Assembly: GCA_963827965.1 (NCBI GenBank)
Contig: CAWHCW010000018.1
Location: 188,198 to 252,197 of the forward strand
DNA from: an uncultured Chloroflexia bacterium
GTDB lineage: Bacteria; Chloroflexota; Limnocylindria; Limnocylindrales; CSP1-4
Direction of reading: 5' to 3'
Length of the DNA stretch: 64,000 nt
This document shows positions 6,889-30,668 of the stretch, in pieces; the stretch's first letter is position 1, and each line of letters begins with the position of its first letter. Below the pieces are notes generated by a model. It ran no database searches and had not been told where the DNA came from. It was given only the letters and a program-made list of their open reading frames with translations. The translations under genes and the position numbers were made by a program.

Positions 6889-6931
6889 AGACCCGCCCGG
6901 CGCAACGGGCATGAGCACCCGGAGGAGCACC

Positions 6932-9242
6932 ATGGCCGCCGAGCCGACCTACCGCAGCGACGCCCGACCTGACTTCGCACCGTTCGAGGAGTCCTGCGGG
7001 ACCATCACCGGGTTCGCCTATGCCGGCGATCTGGCGATCGGAGCTTGCGGCCGGTGGAATCGACGGCGCCGGGGCCCTCGACCTCCTCGACGACATGCTC
7101 GCGATCCGCGAGCTCGAGGAGATGATCGTCCGGCTGCGCTCGGGCGGCTACGACCCGCTGCCCGGCTACGACTACCGCGGTCCGACCCACGTGTCGATCG
7201 GCCAGGAGGGCACCGCCGTCGGCGCCACCTCCGCACTGCGGCCCGACGACAACGTCACGAGCTCCCACCGCGGCCACGGCGACGCGATCGCCAAGGGCTT
7301 TGCGGCGATCCGCCGGATGACCGAGCGAGGAGCTGCGGGCGCGCGTTCCGGGCATCGACCGCCGAGACCCGGGAGGAGCTCCTCGAGGCGGCTCTCGAGG
7401 AGCACGTCTACCGGGTCATCGCCGAGCTCTTCGGCAAGGAGGAGGGCTACAGCCGCGGGCGAGGCGGCGGGATGCACATCGGCGACTTCTCGACGGGCAA
7501 CCTGGGGGCCAACGCGATCGTCGGCGGCAGCGTGCCGATCGCGACCGGCGCGGCGATGGCGATCCGCTACGGGCAGTCCGATCGGGTCGTCTGCTGCTTC
7601 GCCGGCGACGGAGCGTACGCCAACGGGGTCGTCCTCGAGTCGCTCAACTGGGCGGCCCAGGACCAGTGGACCAACCACCTCGCCGGTGACCGGGCCCACG
7701 GGCTGCCGATCATCTTCCTCATCCAGAACAACCACTACGGGATGACCCACCGGACCGACGAGGAGGTCATGGGCGTGCGCCACCTCGCCCGCCGGGCGGC
7801 CGGCTTCGCCGGGGACAACATGCACGCCGAGGTCGTCAACGGGATGGACGTCCTCGCCGTGCGCGACGCCGTCGGGCGGGCGGCAGCCCTCTGCCGGGCC
7901 GGCCAGGGACCCGTCCTCGTCGAGGCCAGCACCTACCGCTACTACGGCCACTCCCTCTCCGACCCGCGGAACGAGTACCGGACCCGCGATGAGGAGGCCG
8001 CCTGGCGCGCCGTCGACCCGATCGAGCTCCTCAAGCGGCAGCTCGTGGAGGCCGGGGCGGCCGACGAGGCGGGCCTTGCCGCGGTCGAGTCCCGCGTCCG
8101 CGAGCGGAACGCCCGGGCCGCCGTCCGGGCGGCGACGGCCACGGATCCCGACCCGGCGGATGTCCTGCGCTACCTCTACACCGACACGGCCGCCGACGTC
8201 GTGCCGGCGGAGAGCCAGGTGGTCGCCACCTACGCCGAACCCCCGGTCGCGAAGCGCGACGCGAGCGGGGCCATCAGCTACAAGGACGCCCTCCGCGAGG
8301 CGCTCGTCGAGGAGATGGCCCGCGACGGCCGGGTCATCGTCTACGGCGAGGACGTGGCCGACTACGGCGGCGCGTTCAAGCTCACGAAGGGGCTCCTCGA
8401 GGCGTTCGGGCGACGAGCGCGTCTTCAACACGCCGATCTCCGAGGCCTGCATCTGCGGCACCGCGGTCGGCGCGGCGATCGTCGGCCTCCGGCCGGTGGT
8501 CGAGCTGATGTACATGGACTTCGCGCTGATGGCCTCCGACCAGATCGCCAACCAGGCCGCCAAGTGGCACTACATGAGCGGGGCCCAGGTCGAGGTGCCG
8601 CTCGTCATCCGGGCCTCGGTCGGCGCGGGCAAGGGCTACGGCGGCCAGCACTCCCAGTCGCTCGAGAGCGTCTTCACGCACATCCCCGGCCTGTACGTCG
8701 TCTACCCCGCCACGGCGACCGACGCGAAGGGGCTGCTCAAGTCCGCGATCCGGACCAACAACCCGGTCCTGTTCGTCGAGAGCCAGGGCCTCTACCCCGT
8801 GAAGGGCGTCGTGCCCGAGGAGGAGTACCTGGTCCCGATCGGCCAGGCCCGCGTCGCCCGCGAGGGCGCCGACGTGACGCTCGTCGGCTGGGGCCCGGCG
8901 GTGCCCGACTCGCTCGCCGCGGCCGAGACCGCTCGCGGCGGAGCACGGCGTCGCGGCCGAGGTGATCGACCTGCGCAGCCTCGTCCCGCTCGACATGGAG
9001 ACGGTCCTCGCCTCGGTCCGCAAGACCGGGCGCTGCGTCGTCGCCAGCCAGGCCGTCCTGGTCGGGCAGCTTCGTCAACGAGATCGTGGCCCGGATCCAG
9101 GTCGAGGCGTTCGACTACCTCGACGGCCCGGTCGGCCGGATCGGGGCGGCGAACGGCATCTCCCCGCAGGCCGAGAGCCTGGAGCGGGCGTTCCTGCCGA
9201 ACGCCGGCGACGTCGTCCGCGGCCGTCCTGGCCCTCCTGTAG
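6932..9242 (+). CDS. 2-oxoacid (pyruvate/acetoin/BCKA-type) dehydrogenase E1 with alpha and beta subunits fused; at least 6 frame breaks
   Basis: Alpha motifs: [31 protein letters not shown] and [11 protein letters not shown]. Without an intervening stop or Met, beta motifs follow: [36 protein letters not shown] and GGQHSQS. Frame changes near 7040, 7325, 7362, 8405, 8940, 9070 and 9215. GGAGGAG SD before ATG 6932. Confidence 0.8.
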
Positions 9243-9257
9243 CCGAGGCGCCCCGCC

Positions 9258-10589
9258 ATGGCCCACGCGATCCTGATGCCCAAGCCCGGCCAGATGACCG
9301 AGGAATGCACCATCATCGCCTGGCACAAGCGCGAGGGCGACCCGGTCGCCAGGGGTGACATCCTGTTCGAGATCGAGACCGACAAGTCGACCATGGAGGT
9401 CGAGTCGTTCGACGACGGCGTCCTCCTCCGGCGGCTGGTCGCCGAGGGCGACACGGTCCCGGTCAACACGATCTGCGCCTACGTGGGCAGACGTCGGCGA
9501 AGCGATCCCCGCGGAGGCGCCGGCCGCCGTCCCCTCCCCTGCCCCGCCAGCCCCGGCTCCCGATCCGGCGGTCGCGCCGGTCCCCGCCACACCGCCAGCC
9601 ATCTCGGTCGCTTCGGCGTTCGCCGCCCCGTCCTCCTCCGGGGCGGCGAACCCGGGCGAATCCCGCGTCCGCATCAGCCCGCGAGCCAGCCGGGCGGCAG
9701 CCGAGGCCGGCATCGACCCCCGCAGCATCGCCGGCACCGGTCCCGAGGGACGGATCACCGAGCGCGACGTGCGAGCGGCCATCGAGGCGCCGCCCGGCCC
9801 GTGCCGGTCGTCGCGGCGGATGCCGCGGCAGCCCCCCCGGTCCCTCGGGTCGCGCCCGCACCCGCCGCCGCTCCCTCGCCCGCGATCCCCGCCGACGGCG
9901 AGGAGGCGCCGCGACCGCTGAGCCGCATGCGCCGCGTCATCGCCGACCGGCTGACCCACAGCTGGACGTCCACCCCGCACTTCACGGTCACCGTGGCCGT
10001 CGACGTGACCGCCCTCCTCGCGCTCCGGGCGGAGCTCAAGGCCGGGGGCACGAACCTGACCGTCACGGACTTCGTCCTGGCCGCCACGGCCCAGACCCTG
10101 GCCGAGTTCCCGGACGTGAACTCGCGCACCGACGGGGTCTCGGTCTGGCCGCGCCGCCGGGTCCACCTCGGCCTGGCGGTCTCGCTCCCCGGCGGGCTCG
10201 TGGTGCCGGTCATCCGGGACGCCGACCGGCTGCCGATCGCCGAGCTCCACGACCGGGCCGCCGCCCTGGCCGCGAAGGCCCGCGAGGGCGCGCTCGCGGT
10301 CGACGACATGACCGGCAGCACCTTCACGGTCTCGAACCTCGGCATGTTCGGCGTCGAGGAGTTCAGCGCGATCATCAATCCCGGCGAGGCGGCGATCCTC
10401 GCGGTCGCCAGCGCCATCCCGACCGCGGTCGCCATCGGGGACGGCCTGGCGGTGCGCTCGATCATGAAGCTGACCCTCTCCGCGGACCATCGGCTGGTCG
10501 ATGGCGAGCTCGGGGCCCGGTTCCTGGGTGCGATCCGGCGCCGCCTCGAGGATTCCCTGGCCTTTCGCCAGGAGGCCCTCAACGCCTGA
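9258..10589 (+). CDS. dihydrolipoamide acyltransferase (E2) component; frame breaks near 9488 and 9795
   Basis: Lipoyl domain (EIETDKSTMEVES), E3/E1-binding domain (RISPRASRAAAEAGIDP..GTGPEGRITERDV) and catalytic domain (SADHRLVDG). Confidence 0.85.
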   Translation: MAHAILMPKPGQMTEECTIIAWHKREGDPVARGDILFEIETDKSTMEVESFDDGVLLRRLVAEGDTVPVNTICAYVGRRRRSDPRGGAGRRPLPCPASPGSRSGGRAGPRHTASHLGRFGVRRPVLLRGGEPGRIPRPHQPASQPGGSRGRHRPPQHRRHRSRGTDHRARRASGHRGAARPVPVVAADAAAAPPVPRVAPAPAAAPSPAIPADGEEAPRPLSRMRRVIADRLTHSWTSTPHFTVTVAVDVTALLALRAELKAGGTNLTVTDFVLAATAQTLAEFPDVNSRTDGVSVWPRRRVHLGLAVSLPGGLVVPVIRDADRLPIAELHDRAAALAAKAREGALAVDDMTGSTFTVSNLGMFGVEEFSAIINPGEAAILAVASAIPTAVAIGDGLAVRSIMKLTLSADHRLVDGELGARFLGAIRRRLEDSLAFRQEALNA

Positions 10590-10702: not shown

Positions 10703-10732
10703 ATGGTAGCGTCACCATTGCTAACGTTACCA
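10703..10732 (+). promoter_or_regulatory. two abutting LacI-family operator-like palindromes
   Basis: aTGGTAGCGTCACCAt (10703-10718) and TGCTAACGTTACCA (10719-10732). Both are near-palindromes centred on CG, about 55 nt upstream of the LacI start. Confidence 0.4.
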
Positions 10733-10787: not shown

Positions 10788-11818
10788 ATGCCGACGATCG
10801 TCGAAGTGGCCGGTCGCGCCGGCGTCTCGGCCATCACCGTGTCGCGCGTCGTGAACAACTCGGGACCCGTGAGCAGCAAGGTCCGGGCGCGGGTCGAGCA
10901 GGCGATCGCCGACATCGGCTACGTGCCCAACGCCGTTGCCCGGAGCCTGCGCTCGTCGCGGACGGACACGATCGCCCTGGTCGTGACCGACATGACGAAC
11001 CCCTTCTTCACCACCATCGCGCATGGCGTGGAGGCCGCCGTCAGCGACTCCGGGATGATGCTCATCATCTGCAGCACGGACGAGCGCGGTGCGGAGGAGG
11101 AGCGTTACGTCCGGATGCTCCTCCAGCGCCGGGTGGACGGGATCCTGCTCGTCCCGGCCGGAGACGGCGCCGCCGCGATCAGGCAGTGTCGGGAGCAGGG
11201 AACGCCGCTCGTCGTGGTGGACCGGCGGCTCCGCGGACGCGGCGCCGACGTCGTGCGCGCCGATTCGAAGGCGGGCGCCTTCGAGCTGGGCCGCCTGCTC
11301 GTGTCGCTGGGGCATCGAACGATGGCGGTCTTGAGCGGGCCCCGGGCCGTGTCGACGGCCGACGATCGCGTCGCCGGTTTCCGCAAGGCACTCGCCCAGG
11401 CGGAGAACGTTCGACCCCCACGCGTCTACCGCGGCGCCTTCACCATCGAAGGCGGACGGGAGATGGCGAAGCTGGCGGTGTCAGCGACGCCTCGGCCGAC
11501 GGCGCTCTTCGCCGCGAACAACTTCATCGCCATCGGCGTCCTGCACGCCCTCGAGGAGATGGAGCTCCGCGTGCCCGAGGACGTCGCCGTGGTCGGCTTC
11601 GACGACCTGCCGCCGGCGATGGTGACGTTCCCCTTCCTCACCGTGGCAGCCCAGCCGGCCTACGAGATGGGCCAGCGGAGTGTCGCCGTGCTGCTCGATC
11701 GCCTGTCCGGCGGCCGCGGCCCCGGCCAGCGCCGCCGGGAGGTCGTCCTTCCCGACGCAACTGGTCGTGCGGCGCTCCAGCGGCGATCCGCTGGGCGCCC
11801 CGGCACCCCTGGTCCTGA
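10788..11818 (+). CDS. LacI-family transcriptional regulator; frame break near 11750; 3' end uncertain
   Basis: N-terminal HTH (MPTIVEVAGRAGVSAITVSRVVN) and periplasmic-binding-fold core (IALVVTDMTNPFF, VVGFDD). The expected tail TQLVVRRSSG is in the next frame. As assembled there is no stop before the next gene unless the TGA at 11816-11818 (third frame) is used. Confidence 0.75.
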
Positions 11819-11838: not shown

Positions 11839-12903
11839 ATGACCATCGAGCTCAAGAGCACGGTGCCCGGCACGGACGTCGAGCGGGGACTTGGCAGGGA
11901 CGACCTGATCGTCATCACCGGGGCCGGCGGGTTCATCGCCGGCTCCCTGGTGCGGTACTTCCACGACCTGGGCTACACCCGGATCCGGGCGATCGATCGG
12001 AAGCCGCTGCCCGAGTGGTACCAGCGCGTGCCCGGCGTGGAGTGCCTGTCGATGGACCTGAGCCAGGAGGCAGAACGCCATCCGGGCCGTCGAGGGCGCG
12101 GTCGAGGTGTACAACCTCGCGGCCGACATGGGCGGGATGGGCTTCATCGAGCGCTTCCGCGTCGAGTGCCTGCGCAGCATCCTCATCAACACGCAACCTG
12201 ATCGAGGCGGCCTACCGGGCCGGCGTGAAGCGCTACTTCTTCTCGTCCTCGGCCTGCGCCTACAACACCGACCTCCAGAAGACCCCGGACGCGCTGGCGC
12301 TCAAGGAGTCGGACGCCTACCCGGCGATGGCCGAGCGGGGCTACGGCTGGGAGAAGCTGATCTCGGAGATGTTCTGCCAGGAGTACTGGGCGGAACGTGG
12401 CCTCGAGACGCACATCGCCCGCTTCCACAACATCTACGGGCCCAACGGGACGTGGTTCGGCGGTCGCGAGAAGGCGCCCGCGGCGATGTGCCGCAAGGTC
12501 GATCGAGGCCCGGGACAGCGGCGACCTGCGCATCGAGATCTGGGGAGACGGGACGCAGACGCGCAGCTTCTGCTTCATCGACGACTGCCTGGTCGGGATC
12601 GACCGGATCATGCACAGCGACGCGCTCATCGCGACGCCGATCAACCTCGGCTCCAGCGAGCTCGTCTCGATCAACGAGCTGGTCTCGATCGTCGAGGAGA
12701 TCGCCGGCGTCAGGCTGGCGCGCTCGTACGACCTCGGCGCACCGAAGGGCGTCGCGGGCCGCAACAGCGACAACACCCTCATCCGGAGCATCCTGGGCTG
12801 GGAACCCGGGACGCCCCTGCGGGATGGCATGGCGGCGACGTACGCCTGGATCGCCGACCAGTACGCGGCGCGGAAGGCCGGCAAGGCCGTGGTGGAGGGC
12901 TGA
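11839..12903 (+). CDS. NAD-dependent epimerase of the GDP-mannose 3,5-epimerase (GME) type; frame breaks near 12075, 12190 and 12500
   Basis: ITGAGGFIAGSL Rossmann motif. NIYGPNGTWFGGREKAPAAMCRK, IWGDGTQTRSFCFIDDC and GRNSDNTLI closely parallel plant GME sequences as I remember them. AGGCGAGG SD. Confidence 0.75.
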
Positions 12904-12908
12904 TCCGC

Positions 12909-13705
12909 ATGCCGGGTTCGCCCGCGCTCGGGGACACCATCGGCCGGCTGCCGTATCGCCTCGCCCTGGCGGGCGGATGGATCGATCAGCCCTTCGTGTC
13001 CGCCGCCAATCCCGAGCCTCCGGGATCGATGGTGGTCGTATCCCTGCAGCCGTCGGTCCGCTACATGGACCGGAGTGGCATGGCGACGGGGACCCGCGCC
13101 GTCGCGGCCTCGCTCTGGGGCGACGCAGCTGCCGGCCAGCCGCGGCCCCCTCGAGCTCGTCCGCGAGCTGTACGCGGCCGAGAACGCGGGGATGGCGGAG
13201 CCATCCGGGTCGCAGGACATGTGCGGCCTCATCGTCCCCGGCGTGAGCCGCCTGGACTACGACGCGTCGATCGAAGGCGGCTGCTTCCCCGCTCACATCG
13301 AGTCCACCTGCGACCCGGGCATCGCCGGGTGGCTGGAGCGCGTCCTGCACCTGATCCCCGTGTCGCCTCGGCCGGTGGGGTATGGCCCCCTCGGCGTGAA
13401 GCGACTGGAGCGGGCGTGGATCCGGCGGCTGGGCCAGAGCGGCAGGGACTGCTACGCCGCGATCGTCCGCCAGGACCTCGCGGCGCTGGGCGCCTCACTG
13501 AACGAGTGCTCCAGGTGCTGGGACGCGATTCTGCCGCACACGCTCGAACACCCGACGATCGCGATCGACCTCAAGGGGCTCCTGGCCGTCGTACGGAGCC
13601 CGGTACGACGGGGCCATGTACTCGGGATGCGGCGGCGGCTACCTGGTCGTGGCGTCGGAGGAGGACGTTCCTGGATCGTCCCGCGTCTCCGTCCGAACGG
13701 CCTAG
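12909..13705 (+). CDS. GHMP-family sugar kinase, L-fucokinase/HddA-like; frame breaks near 13130 and 13595
   Basis: RLALAGGWIDQPF (compare the RIDLAGGW-DTPP motif of fucokinase GHMP domains), SGMATGT (GHMP motif II-like), GSQDMCGL, and C-terminal GAMYSGCGGGYLVV. Start is 6 nt after the epimerase stop. Confidence 0.6.
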
Positions 13706-13716
13706 GGGACGATCGG

Positions 13717-14574
13717 GTGAACGACGCACGGCCGTCTGCGGCGGAGCGCGCTGGCAGCCCATCCACGGTCGTCGTGTCGGCGAGCCTCGACAACCTGCGC
13801 TCCTCCGATGTCCGCTTCCTCCAGGAGGCCGCCCGGCTGGGAGCGGTCCACGTGCGACTCCCCTCCGACGGGCTGATCGAGTCCCGGACCGGGCGCCCAC
13901 CGCGCTTTCCGCAGGCGGAGCGGCGATACCTGGCGACCGCATTGCGCCCCGTGAACAGCGCCGGCGTGGTTCGGCGGCCGGCGGCGGCCGCGCTCCGGGA
14001 CGTCGCCGCCCGGTATACCACCCTCGTCGTGCCGCCAGGCGAGGACGATCGCGACCTTCGCGCCGAGTGCCGTGCCCGCGGCATCGGCTACCACCCGCTT
14101 CGACCAGGAGACCTCGCCGGATTCCCGCCGTTCGAGGACGAACGATCGACAGCCCCGCCCGGCGCCCGGCGGGTGATCGTCACCGGGTGCTTCGACCGGC
14201 TCCACTCGGGCCACATCCGGTTCTTCATGGATGCTGCCGCCCTTGGCGAGCTGTACGTCGTCGTCGGGAGCGACGCGAACGTCGGGCTGCTCAAGGGACC
14301 CGGCCATCCGCTGCACGGGCAGGACGAACGGCGGTACATGGTGCAGGCGGTGCGCAGCGTGCATCGCGGCCTCGTCTCCAGCGGGAAGGGCTGGATGGAC
14401 GCCGAGCCGGAGATCGAGGAGATCCAGCCGCACGTGTACGTCGTGAACGAGGACGGCGACCAACCGGAGAAGCGCGAGTTCTGTCGCGCCCACGGCCTCG
14501 AGTACGTCGTGCTCCAGCGCAAGCCCCATCGCGGTCTCCCGGCGCGGACGAGCACGGACCTGCGGGGCTTCTGA
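13717..14574 (+). CDS. tandem cytidylyltransferase-fold (HIGH-motif) nucleotidyltransferase; N-terminal copy degenerate
   Basis: The C-terminal half has VIVTGCFDRLHSGHIRF..VVVGSD..ERRYMVQAVRSV, as in TagD / RfaE domain II. The N-terminal half aligns to it (VVVSASLDNLRSSDVRF..ERRYLATALRPV) but lacks HxGH. GTG start with AGGGGA SD. Intact. Confidence 0.6.
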   Translation: MNDARPSAAERAGSPSTVVVSASLDNLRSSDVRFLQEAARLGAVHVRLPSDGLIESRTGRPPRFPQAERRYLATALRPVNSAGVVRRPAAAALRDVAARYTTLVVPPGEDDRDLRAECRARGIGYHPLRPGDLAGFPPFEDERSTAPPGARRVIVTGCFDRLHSGHIRFFMDAAALGELYVVVGSDANVGLLKGPGHPLHGQDERRYMVQAVRSVHRGLVSSGKGWMDAEPEIEEIQPHVYVVNEDGDQPEKREFCRAHGLEYVVLQRKPHRGLPARTSTDLRGF

Positions 14575-20353: not shown

Positions 20354-20509
20354 GGATCATCCAGGGGAGCGCAGTCTGTACGCCGCGGTTCGGGTGCGGG
20401 GCTCCACCGAGATGGTCGGGTGCGCCCCTGCGGACCACGCGGCGATCGCGCCACACATTCGCGTGATGACGCGCCAGCCAATCCGTCAACCCGATCCGAG
20501 GAATGCCCC

Positions 20510-21802
20510 ATGACCACGAGCGATCCCTCACTGCCGGTGGACGACCGCCGCGTCATCCGAGACCTGGCGGCGCGGTGGGCGGAGCTCGCCGCCCAGCCGG
20601 TCATGGCAGAACGAAGGCGCCAGTGGCGTGCGCTCCACGATCTGCGGCCGGAACGGCCGATGATCCTGTTCGAGACCTCGTCGATCGACGGCTATGTCGC
20701 GCCCGACGAGCTCCGCTGCGTCAACCCGGCCCTGCGGGCCGTCGAGAAGACCATGCGGGACAACATCCGACACGCCGAGGAGGTCGGGGACGACATCGTC
20801 CTCGAGCCCTACTTCCGAATCGGTTGGGACATCGAGAGCAACGGTTTCGGCGTCGAGGTGGTGACGACCGAGGCGGTCGTGCCCGCGGACGAGGTCCCGC
20901 TCGGGTACACCTTCAACTTCCCGATCCGCGAGCCCGGCGACACCAGGCTGCTGCACCGACGGGAGTTCAGCGCCAACCGGGCCAGGACTCTCGCCCGCAG
21001 CAGGTTCCTCGAGGATGCCTTCGGAGACCTGCTGCCGGTCCGCGTCGGGAACTACGATCAGTTCCTGACCGAGCCGCCCGGCGAGAGCTGGGCGGGCAAC
21101 TACTTCATCGGCCTGACGTGGCAGATCTACCGCTTCATCGGCAACGACGGGCTGCTGTACTGGCTCTACGATGCTCCCGAGACGATCCACTGGCTCATGG
21201 AGTACATGACCCAGGATCGGGAGAGCATGTTCTTGTACCTCGAGCACGAAGGCCTGATCGTGCCCAACACGGACAACCAGATGGCTGGGCCGCGCGCCTA
21301 CGGCTACGTGTCTGAGCTGCCCGGGCCGGACAGTGCACCGCCCACCGGACTCAGTGACGTGTGGTGCTGGGCCGATTTGCAGGAGACGACGACGATCTCG
21401 CCCGCGATGTACAAGGAGTTCGTCCTGCCGTACATCGCCCGCCTGACGGCCCGGTTCGGCCTTGTCTACTACGGCTGCTGCGAGCCGGTGCACGACCGCC
21501 TCGACCTGATCATGGAGGCGATCCCCAATCTCCGTTCGGTCTCCGTCTCGGCGTGGGCCAACTTCGGCGCGGTCGCCGACATGCTGGGGCGGCGGTACGT
21601 CTACTCGCGCAAGCCGAATCCTGCCTTCATGACCGGCACGAGCCCCGACTGGGACCTCGTGGAGCGGGACCTGCGCACGACGTACGCGGCCGCCCGGGAC
21701 TGCAACGTCGAGCTGCTCTTTCGGGACCTCTACTCGATCAGGGGCGATCGGGCGCGGCTCGCCAGGTGGGTGCGACAGGCTCGGTCGATCTTCGAGGCCT
21801 GA
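20510..21802 (+). CDS. uncharacterised 430-aa protein; weak resemblance to URO-D/MtaA-like TIM barrels
   Basis: Intact ORF with coding-like third-position bias. The C-terminal pattern YYGCCEPVHDRLDLI..NLRSVSVS..SRKPNP is reminiscent of URO-D-like enzymes. No confident family assignment from reading alone. Confidence 0.55.
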   Translation: MTTSDPSLPVDDRRVIRDLAARWAELAAQPVMAERRRQWRALHDLRPERPMILFETSSIDGYVAPDELRCVNPALRAVEKTMRDNIRHAEEVGDDIVLEPYFRIGWDIESNGFGVEVVTTEAVVPADEVPLGYTFNFPIREPGDTRLLHRREFSANRARTLARSRFLEDAFGDLLPVRVGNYDQFLTEPPGESWAGNYFIGLTWQIYRFIGNDGLLYWLYDAPETIHWLMEYMTQDRESMFLYLEHEGLIVPNTDNQMAGPRAYGYVSELPGPDSAPPTGLSDVWCWADLQETTTISPAMYKEFVLPYIARLTARFGLVYYGCCEPVHDRLDLIMEAIPNLRSVSVSAWANFGAVADMLGRRYVYSRKPNPAFMTGTSPDWDLVERDLRTTYAAARDCNVELLFRDLYSIRGDRARLARWVRQARSIFEA

Positions 21803-21925: not shown

Positions 21926-23415
21926 CACCGCGCTCCGGATGGTCGCCATCGACCTCGGCGCGGAGAGCGGGCGCGCCGTCGTCGGCACCTTCGATGGCGG
22001 GCGCCTGGCCCTGGAGGACGTGCACCGCTTCCCCAACGTCCCGGTCACCCTGGCGGGCACCCTCCACTGGGATTTCCTGCGCCTCTTCGGCGAGGTGACC
22101 GCGGGCCTCCGGCGGGCCGCCGCCAGCGGGCCGGTGGCGTCCGTCGGCGCGGACACGTGGGGCGTCGACTTCGGGTTGCTCGACGCCCGCGGCCGGCTGC
22201 TGGCAAACCCGGTGCATTACCGCGACCGGCGCACGGAAGGGATGCCCGACCACGCCTTCGCGATCGTGCCGCGCGACGAGATCTATGCCGCGACGGGCAT
22301 CCAGTTCATGCCCATCAACACGCTCTACCAGCTCTTCTCGATGGTCCGCGCGGACGACCCGTTGCTGGGCCAGGCCGACCGGCTGCTGATGATGGCCGAC
22401 CTCTTCCACCACTTCCTGGCCGGGAGCGCAGTCGCCGAGTACACGAACGCGAGCACCAGCCAGTGCCTGGATCCGGTCGCCCGCGACTGGGCGCGGCCCC
22501 TCCTCGCTCGCTTCGGCATCCCGACCGGGATCCTGCCGCCGATCGTGGCGCCGGGGACGGTCCTGGGTCCCGTGCGCCCGGACGTGGCGGCGGACACGGG
22601 CCTGCGCAACACGCGCGTCGTGGCGCCGGGCTCGCACGACACCGCGTCCGCCGTGGTCGGGGCGCCGCTCGCGGGCCCGACGACCGCCTTCCTGAGCTCC
22701 GGGACGTGGTCGCTGATCGGCCTCGAGGTGCCCGCCCCGGTGATCACCGAGGTGACCCTCGCGGCGAACCTGACCAACGAGGGCGGCGTCGCGGGCACCG
22801 TGCGCCTCCTGCGCAACGTGGCGGGCCTCTGGCTGGTCCAGGAGAGCCGCCGGGCGCTCTGGCCGGCCGGCGATGCCCCCTCGTACGAGGAGCTGGCGGC
22901 GCTCGCCGAGGCGGCGCCCGCGTTCACGGCGTTCATCGACCCCGACGACGAGCGCTTCCTGCGTCCGGGCGACCTGCCCGCGCGCGTGCGCGCGTCCTGC
23001 GCCGAGACCGGGCAGCCGGTCCCCCACGATGCCGGGACGCTCGTCCGGGTGCTCCTCGAGAGCCTCGCGCTCCGCTACGCCGTCGCGGTCGACGAGCTCG
23101 ACGGCGTCATCCGGTCATCCCATCGAGGCGATCCACGTGGTGGGCGGCGGGTCGAACAACCGGCTGCTGTGCCGCCTCACCGCCGGCGCGACGCACCTGC
23201 CGGTCCGGGCTGGACCCGTGGAGGCGACGGCGATCGGCAATCTCGCCGTCCAGGCCATCGCCGCCGGTGAGCTGGCGGACGTGGCCGAGGCCCGGGCGCT
23301 CATCGCCAGCTCGTTCCCCGTGACCACCTACGAGCCCGAGGGTGACTGGGCCGAGGCGCGCGCGCGCTTCGCCACGGTCGTCGCTCGACCCGCGCCGGCA
23401 TCCACCACGCCCTGA
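21918..23415 (+). CDS. rhaB: rhamnulokinase (FGGY family); frame break near 23108
   Basis: AIDLGAESGR, DTWGVDFGLLD, PGSHDTASA and HVVGGGSNNRLL. TTG 21918 has a GAGGAGG SD 9 nt upstream (alternative ATG 21939). The tail is in the frame of ORF 22873..23415. Confidence 0.85.
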
Positions 23416-23429
23416 CGAAGGAGACCACC

Positions 23430-24651
23430 GTGGCCCTGACCGCGTCCATCGCCCGCCCCGCCACCGCCCCCGCGCTCGAGCGGATCGAGTGGGCCGTGAG
23501 CGGCCTCGCCATCGAGCTGCCGTCGTGGGGCTTCGTCAACACCGGCACGCGCTTCCGGGTCTTCCCGCAGCCGGGCGTCCCCCGCAACGCCTTCGAGAAG
23601 GTCGACGACGCGGCCACGGTCAACCGGTACACGGGAATCGCGGGCTCGGTCGCCCTCCACATCCCCTGGGACCGGGTGGACGACTGGCCGGCCTTCACGG
23701 CCTACGCGGCCGAGCGCGGCCTGCGCATCGGCGGCATCAACAGCAACACCTTCCAGGACGAGGATTACAGGCTCGGCTCGGTGTGCCATCCCTCGGCCGC
23801 CGTACGGGCCAAGGCCGTCCGGGCCATCGTCGAGTGCTGCGAGATCGCCGCCGCCACCGACTCCAAGGTCGTCAAGGTCTGGCTGGGCGACGGGACCAAC
23901 TACCCCGGCCAGGACGACATGCGCTGGCGGCGCCACCGGCTCGTCGAGGGCCTGCGCCGAGATCCACCCGCACCTCCCGGCGGGCGTGCGCATGCTGCTG
24001 GAGTACAAGCTGTACGAGCCGGCCCTCTACTCCACCGACGTCCAGGACTGGGGCCAGGCCCTCGCGGTGTGCCGCGAGGTCGGCGAGCAGGCCGCAGTCT
24101 GCGTGGACACGGGCCACCACGCGATGGGCGTCAACATCGAGCAGATCGTGGCGATCCTCCTGGCGGAGGGGCGCCTCGGCGGCTTCGACCTCAACGACAA
24201 GAAGTACGGCGACGATGACCTCATGGTCGGCTCCATCGACCCCTACCAGCTGTTCCGCATCGCGCACGAGCTGGTCAACGCCATGCGCGACGACGGCGAC
24301 CCGGTCGCCCAGGGCTGCGCCAGCGAGGTCGTCTACATGCTCGACCAGTGCCACAACATCGAGCCGAAGATCCCGGCCATGATCCGCTCGGTCATGACCC
24401 TCCAGGAGACGGTGGCCAAGGCGCTCCTCGTCGATCGCGAGGCGCTCCTCGCGGCGCAGGCGGCGGGCGACGTCCTGGAGGCGAACCGCCTGCTCGCCGA
24501 TGCGTTCGCGACGGACGTCCGGCCGCTCCTCGCGGGGCTGCGCACCGCGCGCGGCCTGCCGGCCGATCCGTTCCGGGCCTATCTCGACAGCGGCGAGGCC
24601 GAGGCGCGGGCCGCCACCCGGGCAGGTGGCACCGCGGCCGGCTGGGGCTGA
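23430..24651 (+). CDS. rhaI: L-rhamnose isomerase, xylose-isomerase-like TIM-barrel (actinobacterial / P. stutzeri) type; frame break near 23955
   Basis: GAAGGAGA SD. Translation includes LPSWGFVNTGTRF, KVWLGDGTNYPGQDD, LLEYKLYEP and DTGHHA. Joined from ORFs 23430.. and 23986..24651. Confidence 0.8.
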
Positions 24652-24696: not shown

Positions 24697-25521
24697 ATGG
24701 CGATCAAGGAACCCTTCCCGGAGCTCGACGAGCTCCTCGCGTCCATCGGTGAAGGCGGGCAGCGCATCGCGACCATCGATGCCGCCGAAGGCGCCGCCGG
24801 CAACATCTCGGTCTGCATCGGCTGGCCCGTCGAGATCCGGCGGCGCTTCCCCGTCGTGGAGGAGATCCGGCTGCCCCAGCCGGCCCCCCACCTCGCCGGC
24901 CGGGTCGTGATCGTCACCGGATCGGGCCGCCGCCTGCGCGACATCGCTGCGGATCCGGCGGCGAACCTCGGCGTCGTCCGGGTCAGCGACGACGGCGCGA
25001 GCGGCACGCTCCACACCTCGCCGCGGCGCCTCTTCGAGCGCCTGACGAGCGAGTGGAACTCGCACCTCGCGGTCCACGACGATACCGTGCAGCGAAGCGG
25101 GACCAACTTCCACGCCGTGGTCCACGCCCAGCCGCCGCACCTGACGTACCTCAGCCACGTCCCGGCCTACCGCGACGAGGAGCAGTTCAGCCGGCGCCTG
25201 CTGCGCTGGGAGCCCGAGACCATCATCAACCTGCCGGCCGGAATCGGCGTCCTGCCCTTCATGCCCCCGGGCTCCCGGATGCTGATGGACGCGAACGTCG
25301 AGAGCCTCCGCAAGCACCGGCTCGTCCTGTGGTCGAAGCACGGCGTGATGTCCCGCTCCGACGTCTCGGTCACGCGCGCCGTGGACCGGATCGAGTACGC
25401 GGAGGCGGCGGCCCGCTACGAGTACATGGATCTCGTATGCGGCGAGCGGGCGGAGGGCCTCACCCCAGACGAGATGCGCGCCGTCGTGCAGATCTTCGAC
25501 GTCAAGACCACGGTCGTCTGA
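24697..25521 (+). CDS. rhaD: rhamnulose-1-phosphate aldolase (class II aldolase)
   Basis: 274 aa, the same length as E. coli RhaD, with matching stretches (VIVTGSGRRLRDIAADPAANLGVVRVSDDG, LVLWSKHGV). GGAGGAGG SD. Intact. Confidence 0.8.
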   Translation: MAIKEPFPELDELLASIGEGGQRIATIDAAEGAAGNISVCIGWPVEIRRRFPVVEEIRLPQPAPHLAGRVVIVTGSGRRLRDIAADPAANLGVVRVSDDGASGTLHTSPRRLFERLTSEWNSHLAVHDDTVQRSGTNFHAVVHAQPPHLTYLSHVPAYRDEEQFSRRLLRWEPETIINLPAGIGVLPFMPPGSRMLMDANVESLRKHRLVLWSKHGVMSRSDVSVTRAVDRIEYAEAAARYEYMDLVCGERAEGLTPDEMRAVVQIFDVKTTVV

Positions 25522-25523
25522 AC

Positions 25524-26721
25524 ATGCCCCGACCCACCCTGAACACGCACATTCACCTGCCGCCCAACTTCTCGGCCTTCGCGACCGCCGAGGACGCCGT
25601 CGAGACCGCTGCGGCGGAGGGCATCCGGGTTCTCGGCGCGTCGAACTTCCACGACCATCGGATCTACGGTCGCTTCGCCGACGCGGCCGTGGCGGCCGGC
25701 ATCGTCCCGCTCTTCGGCCTCGAGCTCATCAGCGTCGTCGATTCCCTGCGCCAGGCGGGCACGAAGGTCAACGACCCGGGCAACCCCGGGCGCATGTACC
25801 TCTGCGGCAAGGGGGTCAACCCGTTCGCGGCGCCGACGGCGACCGCGGCGCGCCTCATGGCGCAGGCCCGCGCTGCGGATACCGAGCGGATGCGGGCCAT
25901 CGTGCCGCTGCTCCGCACCCGTTTCGCGGAAGCCGGGCTGGCGACGGCGCTGACCGCTGAGAACATCGTCGACGAGGTCGCGGAGGCGGCCGGCGTCCCG
26001 CGCGCGTGGGTGGTGCTGCAGGAGCGCCACGTTGCGATGGCCTTCCAGGAGGCGCTCTTCCTGGCGGTTGCGCCCGAGGGTCGGCGCGCGCTCCTCGCGC
26101 CGGCTGTTCGGGAGACCCGCCGACGCAGCGGTGGACGATCCGATCGCCGTCCAGGGGGAGATCCGTTCGCGGCTCATGAAGGCGGGCCGGCCGGCGTTCG
26201 TGCCGGAGTCGCCGGTCTCGTTCGACGACGCCTACCGGCTGATCCTGGAGATGGACGGCATTCCCTGCTATCCCACCCTTGCCGACGGCGCCTCACCGGT
26301 CTGCCCCTGGGAGGCGCCGCCCGACGCGCTCGCGCAGCGCGTGCTCGAGCGGGGCATCCATGTTGCCGAGCTGATCCCGAACCGGAACCGGCCGGCCGCC
26401 GTCGACGCGTATGTCGCCGCATTCCGCGGTGCCGGCATCGTCGTCCTGGCCGGCACGGAGCACAACACGCCGGAGCGGATCCCGCTGGAGCCCCGCTGCG
26501 TCGACGGGTCGCTGCCGTCGCCCGGCGCGCGCGCGGCGTTCTGGGAGGCGACCTGCGTCGTGGCTGCCCATCAGCACCTCCGGGCGTCCGGTCGGCCGGG
26601 CTACGTGGACGGCCACGGCCGGCTCAACCCGGGCTTCCCGGACGGCGAGGCGCGCATCCGCTGGTTCGCCGAGCAGGGGGCGGAGCTGATCGGCGCGGCG
26701 TCCCTGGCAGGGGCCCGATGA
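25524..26721 (+). CDS. uncharacterised ~399-aa protein with PHP/amidohydrolase-like metal motifs; frame break near 26100
   Basis: N-terminal LNTHIHLPPNFSAF, and later GTEHNT and AAHQH. The start is 3 nt after the rhaD stop and the stop overlaps the next start (ATGA). Confidence 0.55.
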
Positions 26722-28848
26722 GCGGCCGGCAGATCGGCCGACGGGAGCTGCCTCCGACGCCGGTCGCGGCGCTCGAAGAGCTGATCGAGGTCGCCCGGCG
26801 CTTCGGCCGTGACCCCGAGTTCAGCCGGGGGGGCGGCGGCAACGCCTCGGCCAAGGTCGACGGCGTCCTGTACATCAAGCCGAGTGGCGTGGCTCTCGCA
26901 ACGCTCGCCGCGGACGATCTCGTGCCGCTCGACATGGAGCCGTTGCTGGCGCTCCTCCACTCCGGCGCCGCGACGGCCGACGACACGGCGGCCGACGATG
27001 CGGCGGCCGACGACAGCGCGGCCGACCAGGGTGCCGACAGCGGGCGGGACCCGGTCATGCGCACGGCCATGGCGGCCCGCCTGGCCGACGCCGGCGGGCG
27101 CCGGCCCTCCGTGGAGCTGCTGTTCCACGCCTTCCTGCCCGAGCGCTTCGTGGTCCACACGCACCCCGTCGACATCAACGCGGTCACCTGCAGCAGCGAC
27201 GGCGGCGCCCTCGCCGAGCGGCTGTTCGGAGATCGCGCGGTGTGGGTGCCCTACACCGACCCCGGCCTTCCGCTCGCCCGGGCCATCGTCGAAGCTCGGC
27301 GGGCGCACGCCGAGCGGACCGGCCTGCCGGCGCCGCCGATCACCGTCATGCAGAACCACGGGATCATCGTCGGGGGGGACGCGGCGGCCGAGATCGACGA
27401 GCGATCCGCGTGGCTCGTCGAGGCCGTGCGATCGGCGCTGGACCGCGCCGCGACGGCGTCCGCTGCCCCACCGGCGGCAGATGCCGCTCCGGCCGCCATC
27501 GACGCGTCTCGAGCGCGGACGCTGGTCGACGTGATCGCGCCCTCGCTCCGCGGCCTCCTGGCAACCGGCGACGCGCTCCGCGTGATCACGTTCGACGACG
27601 GGCCGCTCGCGGCGGCATTCACGGCCACGCCGGCCGGCCGGGGCTTCGTGCTGGGCGGGCCGCTGACCCCCGACCAGATCGTCTACACCGGGTCGTGGCC
27701 GCTGCTCCTGGATGTCCCCGGGAGCGTCGACCCGGACGCACGTCCCGCCCCTCCTGCGCGCACGCCTGGCGGAGCACGTCGCCGCCCACGGCACGAGGCC
27801 CATCGTGGTGGTCGTGCCGGGTCTCGGCCTCTTCGCGGCGGGCGACACCTGGGAGCAGGCCGACACGGCGCGCCACGTCTACCTGGATGCCCTGCGCGTC
27901 GGCCAGGGCGCGCACCTGCTCGGCGGCGTGCGCGCGCTGGCCGACGCCGAGCGGACCTTCATCGAGGCGTGGGAGGCGGAGGCCTACCGGCGCGACGTGG
28001 CCGCCGGCGCCGCTGGCAGCGGGCGCTTCGCGGGCAGGGTGGCGCTCGTCACCGGGGCCGCCCAGGGCTTCGGGCTGGCGATCGCCGCCGACCTCGTCGC
28101 CGAGGGCGGCCACGTCGTGCTCGCCGACCTGAACGCGGCGCTCGCCGAGGTCAACGCCCGCGACCTGGAGGCCCGCCACGGCCCGGGGCGGGCGTGCGGC
28201 CGCCGCCGTGGACGTCATGGACGAGCAGTCCGTGGCCGACGGCCTCCACGCCACGGTCGTGCGCTACGGCGGCCTCGACCTGCTCGTCTCGAACGCGGGG
28301 GTGCTGCGCGCCGGCGGCGTGACGAGCCAGCCGCTGGCCGAGTTCGACCTCGTCACCAGGGTCAACTACCGGGGCTACTTCCTGGGCGTGCGGGCGGCCG
28401 CCCCGATCATGGCCCGCCAGCACCGCGCGAAGCCCGACCACCGGAGCGACATCATCGAGATCAACTCCAAGTCCGGGCTCGTCGGCTCCAGCCGCAACAG
28501 CGCCTACGCGGGCGTCGAAGTTCGGCGGCATCGGCCTCACCCAGTCGTTCGCCCTGGAGCTGGTCGGCGACGGCGTCAAGGTCAACGCGATCTGCCCGGG
28601 CAACTTCTTCGACGGGCCGCTGTGGGCCGACCCGGAGAACGGCCTCTTCGTGCAGTACCTCCGCGAGGGCAAGGTGCCCGGGGCGACCATCGATCGCCGA
28701 CGTCCGCCGCTTCTACGAGGCCAAGGTCCCCATGGGCCGAGGCTGCACGCCGGCGGACGTGCTCGAGGCGCTCTACTACCTGGTTGCCCAGCAGTACGAG
28801 ACCGGCCAGGCCCTGCCCGTCACGGGCGGCCAGGTGATGCTGAGCTGA
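26718..28848 (+). CDS. bifunctional class II aldolase / short-chain dehydrogenase (RhaEW-like rhamnulose-1-P aldolase / lactaldehyde dehydrogenase); at least 4 frame breaks
   Basis: Aldolase half: GGGGNASAK, FVVHTHP, VMQNHGII. SDR half: ALVTGAAQGFG, NSAYAGSKFGG, PVTGGQVM. Frame changes near 27735, 28195, 28515 and 28695. Confidence 0.8.
26972..27041 (+). repeat. imperfect 15-nt-period tandem repeat (GCGGCCGACGA core) inside the aldolase domain
   Basis: Four to five units at 26972, 26988, 27003, 27018 and 27031, encoding TADDTAADDAAADDSAADQGADS. Confidence 0.6.
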
Positions 28849-28917: not shown

Positions 28918-30668
28918 GTGAACGAACCGCCCCCGCCAGCCCCGGCGCTGCCGGCGACCCAGCACGCGATCCAGTTCGTCGGCCCCGGGCAGCTGGTCCA
29001 CAACCGGGCCAAGCCCGTGCCCCGGCCCGGCCCGACCCAGCTCCTGCTCAAGGTCGAGGCGGTCGGGATCTGCTTCTCCGACACCAAGCTCCTCAAGGCG
29101 TTCTCGACCCACCTCCGGAAGGCCGAGGTGCTCGATGGCATCGACGAGGCGGCGCTGGCGGAGATCCCGAGCTACGTGCCGGGCGAGCTGCCGACGGTTC
29201 CCGGCCACGAGGTCGCCGGGCAGGATCGTGGCCGTCGGGGCGGCCGTCGCCCGGCACGCCGTCGGGGAGCGGGTCCTCGTCCAGACCGACTACCGGCACC
29301 TCCCGACCCCCGGCACGAACGCGGCCTTCGGCTACAACTTCGAGGGCGGGCTCCAGGAGTACGTCCTCCTCGACGAGCGGATGATCATCGAGCCCGGGAC
29401 CGGCGAGCGATTCCTCATCCCCGTCGACGAGGCGCCGAGCGGCTCTGCGGTCGCCCTCCTGGAGCCGTGGGCCTGCGTCGAGGCGTCGTACGCGTCGCGC
29501 GAGCGCGCCTCGCTGGCGCCCGGCGGTCGCCTGCTCGTCGTGGCCGACGCGGGGCATGCGATCGAGGGGCTGGCGTCGCTGCTGGCGGCCGGGACGCCCG
29601 CCGCGCTGACGGCGGTCGTCGCGGAGGATGCCCAGCGTCTGCTCTCGAAGCCGTGGTGGATCCTGCCGCGCCGGGGATCGCCTTCGTCGCCGACGCGATC
29701 GCTCTGCCCGTCGAATCCTTCGACGACATCGTCTACTTCGGGGCCGATGCCGATCACATCGAGCAGCTCCAGGGCCTCCTCGCCCCGCGTGGCGTGATCG
29801 ACATCGTCCTGGGTGGGAGGCGGATCGGGCGGGCCGTCGCGGTGGACGTCGGCCGGATCCACTACGACCTCACCCGGTGGGTCGGCACGCCCGGCGCCGC
29901 GGCGGCCGCGGGCTACGCCATCGCGCCGGCGGACGGCGAGCTGCGGGCCGGCGACCAGGTCGCCGTGATCGGCGCCGCCGGTCCGATGGGCCTCATGCAC
30001 GTCATCCGGACCGTCACCTCGGCGCTGCCCGGACTGACGCTGACCGCGGTCGACATCGACGACGCCCGCCTGGCCCATCTCGCCGCCATCGCCGGCCCGC
30101 TGGCCGCGGCGCGGCGGATCCCGGCGGTCTTCCTCAACGGCCGCGACCACCCCGACCGCAGCCCGGGTTCAGCTACGTCGCGGTCATGGTGCCGGCGCCG
30201 CCGCTCGTCGCCCAGGCCGTGGACCTGGCGGGGACGCGGCGCCCGGATCAACATCTTCGCCGGGTTCGCGGCGGGCACGCGGGCGGCGCTCGACCTCGAC
30301 GCCGTGCTCGCGCAAGGGCGCCTACCTCTTCGGCACCAGCGGCTCCGAGATCGCCGGACATGAAGACGGTCCTCGGGAAGCTCGAGCGCGGCGAGCTGGA
30401 CACGAACATCTCGGTCGACGCCGTCACCGGCATGGAGGGCGTCAGGGAGGCGCTCGCCGCGGTCGAGGCGCGCACGTCGGGCGGCAAGATCGTCGTCTAC
30501 CCGACCCTCCACGAGCTGGGCATGGTCCGGCTCTCGGAGCTGGCCGCACGCTTCCCGACGGCCGCGGCGGGCCTCCGGGACGGACGCTGGACCCGCGCGG
30601 CGGAGGAAGCGCTGCTGGCCGCCGGCGCGGAGGAAGCGTCGCGGCCGAGCGGACGACGGCGGGCATGA
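28918..30668 (+). CDS. atypically long (~580 aa) MDR/zinc-type alcohol dehydrogenase family protein; at least 5 frame breaks
   Basis: GroES-like N-terminus ([21 protein letters not shown]), a first nucleotide-binding-like segment, then [15 protein letters not shown], and an MDR C-terminus (GGKIVVYP). Frame changes near 29218, 29650, 30160, 30235 and 30325. GAGGAG SD before GTG 28918. Confidence 0.55.

Follow-up and report, generated by a model that had tools for sequence, protein, structure and literature searches.

This work concerns three adjacent genes in DNA from an uncultured Chloroflexia bacterium (contig CAWHCW010000018.1, positions 188,198 to 252,197). The whole stretch that was analysed, 64,000 nucleotides long and about 72% G+C, is referred to as the window. 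The genes are predicted to encode a GDP-mannose 3,5-epimerase (GME)-type member of the short-chain dehydrogenases/reductases (SDR) (gene 1), an L-fucokinase-like anomeric sugar kinase of the GHMP fold (gene 2) and a two-domain nucleotidyltransferase of the HIGH superfamily (gene 3). The trio would make up a nucleotide-sugar salvage route of the Leloir type, built partly from an enzyme family that is not annotated. Together with a LacI-family repressor gene in front of it and a predicted operator, it is read as a substrate-inducible, Leloir-like operon leading from L-galactose/L-fucose to GDP-mannose, a reading to which a probability of about 50% is given. The activities, the sugar, the nucleotide, the direction of flux and the ligand of the repressor are what we infer from the comparisons below.

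All three genes are located on the + strand. Gene 1 runs from an ATG at 11839 to a TGA at 12901-12903 (353 amino acids when stitched), gene 2 from an ATG at 12909 to a TAG at 13703-13705 (264 amino acids when stitched) and gene 3 from a GTG at 13717 to a TGA at 14572-14574 (285 amino acids, intact). The spacers are 5 nt (12904-12908) and 11 nt (13706-13716), and the LacI gene lies 5' of the trio; this layout, given in an earlier sequence-only reading, was borne out on re-reading. Genes 1 and 2 cannot be read as single open reading frames (ORFs), and gene 3 is unbroken. The breaks are discussed in a later section.

In the proposed pathway, gene 2 would use ATP to phosphorylate the anomeric hydroxyl of an L-fuco- or L-galacto-configured sugar, most likely L-galactose and possibly L-fucose, yielding a beta-L-sugar 1-phosphate. 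Gene 3 would then join this product to a nucleoside triphosphate, probably GTP, through its C-terminal HIGH domain, giving an NDP-L-sugar, and the degenerate N-terminal copy of the domain may be structural or regulatory. Epimerization at C3 and C5 by gene 1 would convert GDP-L-galactose to GDP-D-mannose, in the thermodynamically favoured direction. GDP-mannose could be used directly or could be converted by ManC, phosphomannomutase and phosphomannose isomerase to fructose 6-phosphate. The LacI repressor would bind an operator of the TGGTAACGTTACCA type and be released by the sugar or an intermediate. The sequence-only reading had suggested an undescribed salvage route in which an imported L-sugar becomes an NDP-sugar and is epimerized. 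Comparative evidence supports this suggestion and sharpens its likely direction to GDP-mannose.

The three enzymes

By every available sequence criterion, gene 1 is an orthologue of GME. It matches the Pfam family Epimerase (E 7.7e-34) and aligns with the plant GME structures 8sg0 (E 6e-82) and 2c59 (E 2e-81), with the next SDR families at about 1e-25. In bits, the PDB scores are 277-279 for GME and at most 90-92 for MoeE5 and GDP-L-fucose synthase. The NAD-binding GxxGxxG motif is present as GAGGFIAG (amino acids 28-35 of the stitched protein), aligned to GAGGFIAS of 8sg0. Also, the Cys of SSAC, the Tyr and Lys of YGWEK (YGxEK), the Lys of GGREKAPAA and the Arg of GRNSDN align column by column with plant GME. 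The roles of the catalytic residues, including the acid-base pair C145 and K217, have been described for AtGME (PMC8787198, PMC6678494). The signature stretches that had first been taken as a sign of GME, GGREKAPAAMCRK, WGDGTQTRSFCFIDDC and GRNSDNTLI, are all found in gene 1, and this assignment agrees with the E values of about 1e-81 to the plant enzymes. In the NCBIfam search, gene 1 had no match to a GME model, and GDP-fucose synthase scored 110 bits against a cut-off of 500.

For gene 2, a compact anomeric kinase of the GHMP fold is the description that fits best; judged from its alignments and model, it would keep a fucokinase active site. The stitched protein has no match in Pfam or NCBIfam, even at E 0.01. 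Its family comprises more than 7000 proteins (E <= 0.001), of which the top 120 relatives are 69-95% identical, all unnamed or "hypothetical" and without a precomputed Pfam domain; an exhaustive search of 50%-identity representatives found 654 clusters with relatives. A profile made from close homologues alone reached the Bacteroides enzyme FKP only at E 0.9. With a broad alignment of 40 sequences (A2), which includes distant relatives at 30-47% identity, the best PDB match is the L-fucokinase domain of FKP (9iip, 6.8e-16), followed by heptose anomeric kinases (3k85 at 4e-10, 4n3o and WcbL, 4usk) and then mevalonate kinases. An AlphaFold (AF2) model from the A2 alignment has a mean predicted local distance difference test (pLDDT) of 96.1 and a predicted TM-score (pTM) of 0.92; it superseded a poor model from 20 close sequences (pLDDT 61.5, Foldseek TM about 0.3). 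Foldseek returned 130 PDB matches at E <= 0.001, and all of the 50 matches listed are members of the GHMP superfamily. WcbL was matched at E 5e-9, and the highest TM-score, 0.68, was obtained with the fucokinase domain of FKP (9iip). The family profile, the model and the FKP residues discussed next all speak for the fucokinase-like GHMP kinase that the sequence-only reading had named.

Residues R17, G22, D26, G57, G100, D103 and P209 are invariant across the broad gene 2 family; W24, P28, T62, R63, Q102 and, in motif III, the GGGG hardly vary, and E91 also varies little if at all. In FKP, D762 is the general base, R592 stabilizes the transition state and E751 is required; W599 stacks on C4-C6 of fucose, and D601, T602 and Q761 hold O3 and O4 (PMC11982464). 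In hidden Markov model alignments, R17, W24 and D26 of gene 2 align directly with R592, W599 and D601 of FKP, in RIDMAGGWTDTP. E91 and G100-S-Q102-D103 fall on ER...GKQDQ in 3k85, a homologous kinase; mapped through 3k85, Q102, D103 and E91 would correspond to Q761, D762 and E751 of FKP. The motifs GGWIDQP, SGSQD and SGCGGGY, which had first drawn attention to the protein, are all present. Because it aligns with ER...GKQDQ of 3k85, GSQD is taken to be the catalytic-base motif and not the phosphate loop. Motif III is clear (SGCGGGY, GAGGGGY in relatives) and aligns with FKP and HddA. Motif II, the phosphate loop, has the unusual form RSGMATGTR, aligned with GSGLGTSS of 3k85, with only G57, T62 and R63 strongly conserved.

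These residues also bear on the substrate. FKP accepts L-fucose, L-galactose and D-arabinose (PMC11982464); therefore, the conserved contacts would specify the L-fuco/L-galacto arrangement at C2-C4 and not the C6 hydroxyl. The conserved sugar-binding residues thus point to an L-fuco/L-galacto-configured sugar, not to L-rhamnose. Three candidates had been listed for the imported L-sugar, and it is the configuration of L-fucose and of the L-galactose-like sugar that these residues retain, with L-rhamnose dropping out.

In gene 3, Pfam recognizes CTP_transf_like (PF01467) at amino acids 154-245 (36.5 bits, gathering threshold 21) and NCBIfam recognizes the generic adenylyl/cytidylyltransferase domain TIGR00125 (50.1, cut-off 27.7). 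Together with the motif TGCFDRLHSGHIRF, which is present in gene 3, these matches confirm the TagD/RfaE-domain-II fold that had been assigned to the third protein. The PDB neighbours are ethanolamine-phosphate cytidylyltransferase (ECT), the HldC-like 5x9q and TagD. Comparison of the N-terminal and C-terminal halves as profiles (hhalign, 57 aligned family members from related loci) gave a probability of 99.9% and E 8e-34. Therefore, the protein arose by internal, tandem duplication of a HIGH domain. The second copy keeps TGC(F/Y)DxLHSGH (here TGCFDRLHSGH) and a C-terminal RxSTxLRGF. In the first copy, the family consensus is SGSFDDLRS and both histidines of HxGH are lost, and it is therefore considered a pseudo-catalytic domain.

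Neither the kinase nor the transferase is placed in a characterized pathway by its profile matches, a result that the sequence-only reading had named as a check on its proposal. Gene 3 stays below the equivalog cut-offs of rfaE domain II (TIGR02199, 59.9 against 181.5 bits; PRK11316, 43.7 against 521) and of TagD (TIGR01518, 36.6 against 165.4 bits). A heptose or CDP-glycerol pathway was rejected on these scores, which lie far under the cut-offs, and for the absence of the accompanying genes.

Some features speak against gene 2 as a kinase. It does not pass the thresholds of GHMP_kinases_N/C, its phosphate loop is atypical, and the best single-sequence PDB match of gene 3 is the ethanolamine-phosphate enzyme. 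Gene 2 could thus be a GHMP-fold protein with a role in binding, regulation or other chemistry, next to a gene 3 whose substrate, like those of TagD and ECT, is not a sugar phosphate. This is considered very unlikely, since gene 2 keeps the general base, the Arg and the Glu, motif III, and the Trp, Asp and Gln of the sugar contacts, since a distant relative passes GHMP_kinases_C (P0233, 29.1 bits against 21), and since a fucose pyrophosphorylase stands in for gene 3 in Acidobacteria. Two further distant relatives, P0182 and P0195, have GHMP_kinases_C matches below the threshold.

Conservation of the operon and direction of the pathway

Relatives of gene 2 were found at no fewer than 554 places (>= 554) in species-representative genomes. 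The best 80 of these, all in metagenome-assembled genomes (MAGs) of Chloroflexota, Planctomycetota, Verrucomicrobiota, Acidobacteriota and Latescibacteria, were compared together with three loci from a protein look-up, giving 83 loci. Neighbouring genes were called by a conservation-weighted choice of ORFs; greedy longest-ORF calling was dropped because high-GC DNA gives long spurious ORFs. The counts of kinases, transferases and LacI genes were taken from tblastn, since one neighbour cluster merges the kinase, some transferases and some LacI proteins.

A GME gene lies directly upstream of the kinase on the same strand in 75 of the 83 loci, and a two-domain HIGH transferase directly downstream of it in 67. 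Conservation of the trio as neighbours, on which the sequence-only reading had made its proposal depend, thus extends over at least four phyla, and its recurrence in most of these independent loci is more than would be expected by chance. The coupling of the epimerase to the kinase and transferase is not universal. In six loci (L024, L034, L050, L031, L048 and L071), no GME gene was found within 4 kb of the kinase and transferase genes.

Natural fusion proteins that contain both domains lend further support to the combination of GHMP kinase and HIGH transferase, noted at the outset as a crossed one. In the distant relatives P0130, P0133, P0137, P0161, P0166 and P0167, one or two CTP_transf_like domains precede the kinase domain. 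More unusual fusions were also observed: L-rhamnose mutarotase (rhaM), HIGH transferase and kinase in P0182; a PNP_UDP_1 phosphorylase, HIGH transferase and kinase in P0233; and a GT2 glycosyltransferase or GT1-like domain joined to the kinase domain in P0195 and P0151. These suggest a wider family of one-protein sugar-activation enzymes.

A variant of the operon is indicative of the second step. The loci of Bryobacterales/Acidobacteria have no HIGH transferase, and the order is GME, kinase, FucU and a fucose pyrophosphorylase of PF07959. PF07959 takes the place of the HIGH transferase in L025, L029, L032, L042, L058 and L065, with FucU between the kinase and PF07959 in L029, L032, L058 and L065. 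A LacI-like gene follows PF07959 in L025, L032 and L058, and in L025 a GH29 alpha-L-fucosidase gene lies beyond it. An FKP-type pyrophosphorylase displaces the HIGH transferase in these operons, which argues that this step attaches a nucleotide, probably from GTP, to a fucose-like 1-phosphate.

Further genes recur near the trio. FucU mutarotase genes were found in about 21 of the 83 loci (in two clusters), ManC-type mannose-1-phosphate guanylyltransferase in 17, Rbs-type ABC transporters in about 10, GH29 fucosidase in 8, L-fucose isomerase (FucI) in 6, PfkB kinase in 4, and phosphomannose isomerase and GH43 in 3 each. In PVC (Planctomycetota-Verrucomicrobiota-Chlamydiota) phyla, AraC regulators are located near the trio in 10 loci. 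Genes for glycosyltransferases, flippases or polymerases are not among the recurrent neighbours in the 83 loci.

This set of neighbours is important for judging whether the operon builds glycans or breaks down sugars. The kinase and transferase might recycle L-fucose or L-galactose for glycans, as FKP, the closest solved relative, does for fucosylation (PMC11982464), and the GME might separately make GDP-L-galactose or GDP-L-gulose from GDP-mannose. Until now, bacterial GMEs have been associated with lipopolysaccharide (LPS) and antibiotic sugars, and the fusions to GT2 or GT1-like domains in P0195 and P0151 would suit such a role as well. Biosynthetic salvage of this kind is nevertheless judged unlikely. 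The genes for glycan assembly just named do not recur, the neighbours that do are glycosidases, a mutarotase, ABC uptake systems, ManC, phosphomannose isomerase and LacI/AraC regulators, and plain salvage does not need the tight coupling of kinase and epimerase.

For the conversion of L-galactose to GDP-mannose, the energetics of the last step are also informative. The GME equilibrium disfavours GDP-L-galactose (PMC8787198). L-galactose is therefore favoured as the probable physiological substrate, and catabolism or assimilation as the probable purpose, because the equilibrium favours GDP-D-mannose and the ManC and phosphomannose isomerase neighbours give a path to fructose 6-phosphate. L-fucose is placed behind it because GDP-6-deoxy-D-mannose has no evident catabolic use and because the loci with FucI already have the standard fucose route.

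L-fucose has its own evidence. The GH29 alpha-L-fucosidase, FucU, FucI and the PF07959 fucose pyrophosphorylase are fucose-specific neighbours, and the kinase conserves the equivalent of FKP W599, the residue that stacks on C4-C5-C6 of fucose. A GME-like enzyme would then turn GDP-L-fucose into GDP-6-deoxy-D-mannose (GDP-D-rhamnose) or a related 6-deoxyhexose. This alternative appears quite unlikely, given that the epimerase is very close to enzymes specific for GDP-mannose/GDP-L-galactose, that ManC and phosphomannose isomerase suit a mannose product, and that an ordinary fucose pathway is already at hand where FucI occurs. Also, we know of no route by which GDP-D-rhamnose enters central metabolism.

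Several points weigh against the operon from L-galactose/L-fucose to GDP-mannose. Genes 1 and 2 are broken in this window. In the kinase, the phosphate loop reads SGMATGTR where the GHMP consensus is GSGLGSSA, and with about 265 amino acids the protein is about 80 residues shorter than the kinase domain of FKP. ManC and phosphomannose isomerase are found near the trio in a minority of loci only, and in the Thermoguttaceae (L024, L034 and L050) the kinase and transferase occur without a nearby GME. FucI, FucU and GH29 would be equally in keeping with L-fucose and L-galactose, and with L-fucose the product of the epimerase would have no obvious catabolic fate. Finally, no HIGH-superfamily enzyme is known to us that uses GTP and a sugar 1-phosphate, and the nucleotide is uncertain for this reason.

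A bolder form of the proposal is a new Leloir-like catabolic route from L-galactose to GDP-D-mannose and on to central metabolism, widespread in four phyla, in which GME runs backwards and two undescribed enzyme types take part. These would be a mini fucokinase-like GHMP family and a tandem HIGH sugar-1-phosphate nucleotidyltransferase with a pseudo-catalytic first domain. It is offered tentatively, at somewhat under even odds. Gene 3 might be the first guanylyltransferase of the HIGH fold. In the full-text literature outside subscription journals, we found no account of the trio or of an L-galactokinase, nor of an operon that joins a GME to a kinase and a transferase.

L-galactose accompanies L-fucose in plant, algal and microbial glycans, and the route, if true, would explain how polysaccharide degraders dispose of it. 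It would also provide a function for a family of more than 7000 "hypothetical" proteins that curated models miss and that is spread, at the places counted above, over species-representative genomes of abundant, mostly uncultured soil and freshwater phyla. In addition, the pairing of a GHMP kinase with a HIGH-fold transferase would be a fourth kinase/nucleotidyltransferase combination, and bacterial GMEs would gain a catabolic role opposite to the textbook biosynthetic one. The enzymes of the trio would also serve in making GDP-L-sugars.

Frame breaks, repressor and surrounding genes

The frame breaks that had been noted in the trio are real in the letters of the sequence, and they could be placed with orthologues and by reading the frames. 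In the epimerase, tblastn with the intact orthologues of L001 and L005 locates an extra base at 12073, 12194 and 12501. The kinase has an extra base at 13125 (tblastn with intact orthologues) and another at about 13591 (three-frame reading), and three-frame reading also places a +1 break near 11757 in the LacI gene. All six breaks are single-base +1 insertions, with no in-frame stops and no further damage. Third-position GC follows the coding frame, with three frame jumps in the epimerase and two in the kinase, and it is at least about 0.9 in every fragment of the broken genes. An intact protein of 264 amino acids (P0001) shares 95% identity with the stitched kinase from end to end.

Breaks of this kind are not limited to the trio. 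When the whole window was scanned for adjoining coding segments that lie in different frames, 40 candidates were obtained, of which about 25-35 were left after the removal of genuine gene boundaries. They are mostly +1 and are found, for example, at 7328, 8403-8425, 8908-8936, 23095-23132, 23926-23972, 26089-26117, 27724-28712 and 29204-29680; a stretch of lower GC at 14.8-21 kb has none. The L-rhamnose isomerase is split by one, its pieces matching positions 2-161 and 160-370 of a single NCBIfam model, and others hit the 2-oxoacid dehydrogenase E1 genes and the RhaD-type aldolase/dehydrogenase. Long-read MAGs are the source of the closest related contigs, and a similarly shortened epimerase occurs in L003 (the same contig as L006). 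The breaks are most likely indel errors of long-read assembly, and they are judged technical because they are single-base insertions spread over the whole window and because close relatives are intact.

Confirmed inactivating mutations had been named as an outcome that would refute the proposal. The breaks are confirmed in the sequence, yet the window-wide spread and the intact relatives make them look technical. Five breaks within 1.9 kb over two genes could still be true mutations in a cluster that is decaying into pseudogenes in this genome, and no second assembly of the organism was found for comparison; exact look-ups of gene 3, of a run-on ORF of 499 amino acids and of the ABC ATPase gave no record. 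Such decay keeps a small probability for the latter reason, and it is highly improbable. Every break is an insertion of one base and none brings an in-frame stop, third-position GC stays at or above 0.9 in each piece, and the stitched kinase matches its intact relative P0001 over the full length. Moreover, similar breaks hit rhaI, the dehydrogenase E1 genes and rhaD elsewhere in the window, and the L003/L006 epimerase, on related long-read MAG contigs, is truncated in a similar manner.

The LacI-family repressor gene (+ strand) runs from 10773 to about 11818. Where it ends is uncertain, since the single TGA close by (11816-11818) sits in another frame, and the C-terminal frame has no stop before 11839. 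The protein is 73-81% identical to the products of LacI genes that adjoin the trio in L003, L005 and L006, and the orthologues carry the Pfam domains LacI and Peripla_BP. A LacI gene with operator-like palindromes had been described in the sequence-only reading. The gene stands, and of the palindromes one is found in the window, conserved in 11 relatives. This probable operator, the 14-bp palindrome TGCTAACGTTACCA with a central CG, is located at 10719-10732, about 40 nt before the LacI start, and contains the single TAACGTTA core of the window. It was missed by an inverted-repeat finder and revealed by pattern search and locus comparison. Alone, the palindrome of the window is not statistically remarkable. 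In 11 related Chloroflexota loci (L005, L010, L015, L018, L020, L021, L043, L051, L055, L063 and L079), TGGTAACGTTACCA or a variant with one or two changed bases is found 60-130 bp upstream of the first gene of the operon, whether LacI stands first or last in it. The site is therefore conserved, and the palindrome is the phylogenetic footprint of a predicted LacI operator.

In L041, from an Anaerolineales MAG, three copies of the palindrome (TGGTAACGTTACCC, TGATAACGTTATCA and TGGTAACGTTACCA) occur at 1191-1218 and 2302, several kb from the trio, and the repressor may control further genes there.

Downstream of the trio, an L-rhamnose-type uptake and catabolism locus extends from 14789 to about 28850 (+ strand). 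Its genes encode a DeoR-family regulator, an Rbs-like ABC ATPase, two permeases, a binding protein, a rhamnulokinase, the frame-split L-rhamnose isomerase of the Gram-positive type, a rhamnulose-1-phosphate aldolase and fragments of a bifunctional RhaD aldolase/dehydrogenase. The deoxyhexose genes that the sequence-only reading saw next to the trio are thus present in the window, but the rhamnose genes are not a conserved partner of the trio in the 83 loci. A functional link between the two was rejected on this ground. Two coding stretches of about 400 amino acids also lie within the rhamnose locus (20495-21799 and 25506-26715, both +); the pieces tested had no Pfam match, and the piece 20495-21334 had no NCBIfam match either. 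Upstream, at 6911-10589 (+), a 2-oxoacid dehydrogenase complex is encoded, with E1 alpha, E1 beta and a lipoyl-bearing E2 as judged from the translations only. A scan of the window for promoters and terminators gave nothing useful.

Comparison with known systems

The pairing of a sugar kinase with a nucleotidyltransferase is shared with HldE or HldA plus HldC, which serve ADP-heptose synthesis, and with HddA plus HddC, which serve that of GDP-heptose. HldE domain II and HldC have the same HIGH fold as gene 3 and act on a beta-sugar 1-phosphate, and HddA and WcbL belong to the GHMP branch of gene 2. However, the heptose systems pair a PfkB kinase with a HIGH transferase or a GHMP kinase with an RmlA-like one, whereas the trio pairs, and its relatives fuse, GHMP and HIGH domains. 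To our knowledge, this combination is not among the characterized sugar-activation pairs. The trio also differs from the heptose systems in that gene 3 scores far under the rfaE domain II cut-off and that GmhA and GmhB are not nearby.

Compared with known GMEs, namely plant GME and MfGM35E of Methylacidiphilum fumariolicum, gene 1 aligns over its full length and its catalytic residues are intact. The known enzymes are described as biosynthetic (ascorbate, cell wall, LPS and antibiotics), whereas the context of the trio suggests the reverse, catabolic direction. MfGM35E, the one characterized bacterial GME, adjoins a glycosyltransferase gene, with methyltransferase and lipid genes nearby. It was considered as a characterized member of the trio operon and was rejected for this different gene context.

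By analogy with FKP, the trio would combine a GHMP-fold anomeric kinase with a nucleotidyltransferase for a beta-L-sugar 1-phosphate. Both the profile search and the TM-score rank FKP first among the PDB matches of gene 2, its catalytic and fucose-binding residues are kept, and in Acidobacteria the operon has a pyrophosphorylase domain of the FKP type. In contrast to FKP, the kinase of the trio is a separate and shorter protein with an altered phosphate loop that Pfam and NCBIfam miss, and the transferase is, in most lineages, a tandem HIGH-fold protein and not of the FKP N-terminal fold. In addition, the pair is tied to a GME epimerase and to regulators of the catabolic type.

The Leloir pathway (GalM, GalK, GalT and GalE) differs from the trio in the sugar, which in the trio would be of the L-series, and in the nucleotide, which would probably be GDP instead of UDP. 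Nucleotidyl transfer would be carried out by a pyrophosphorylase-type transferase and not by exchange through the HIT-family GalT, and epimerization would take place at both C3 and C5 and not at C4. The overall design and some of the folds are nevertheless shared, since a mutarotase (FucU), a GHMP anomeric kinase, a nucleotidyl transfer step, an SDR epimerase that would turn the NDP-sugar into a mainstream one and a repressor of the LacI/GalR type are found on both sides.

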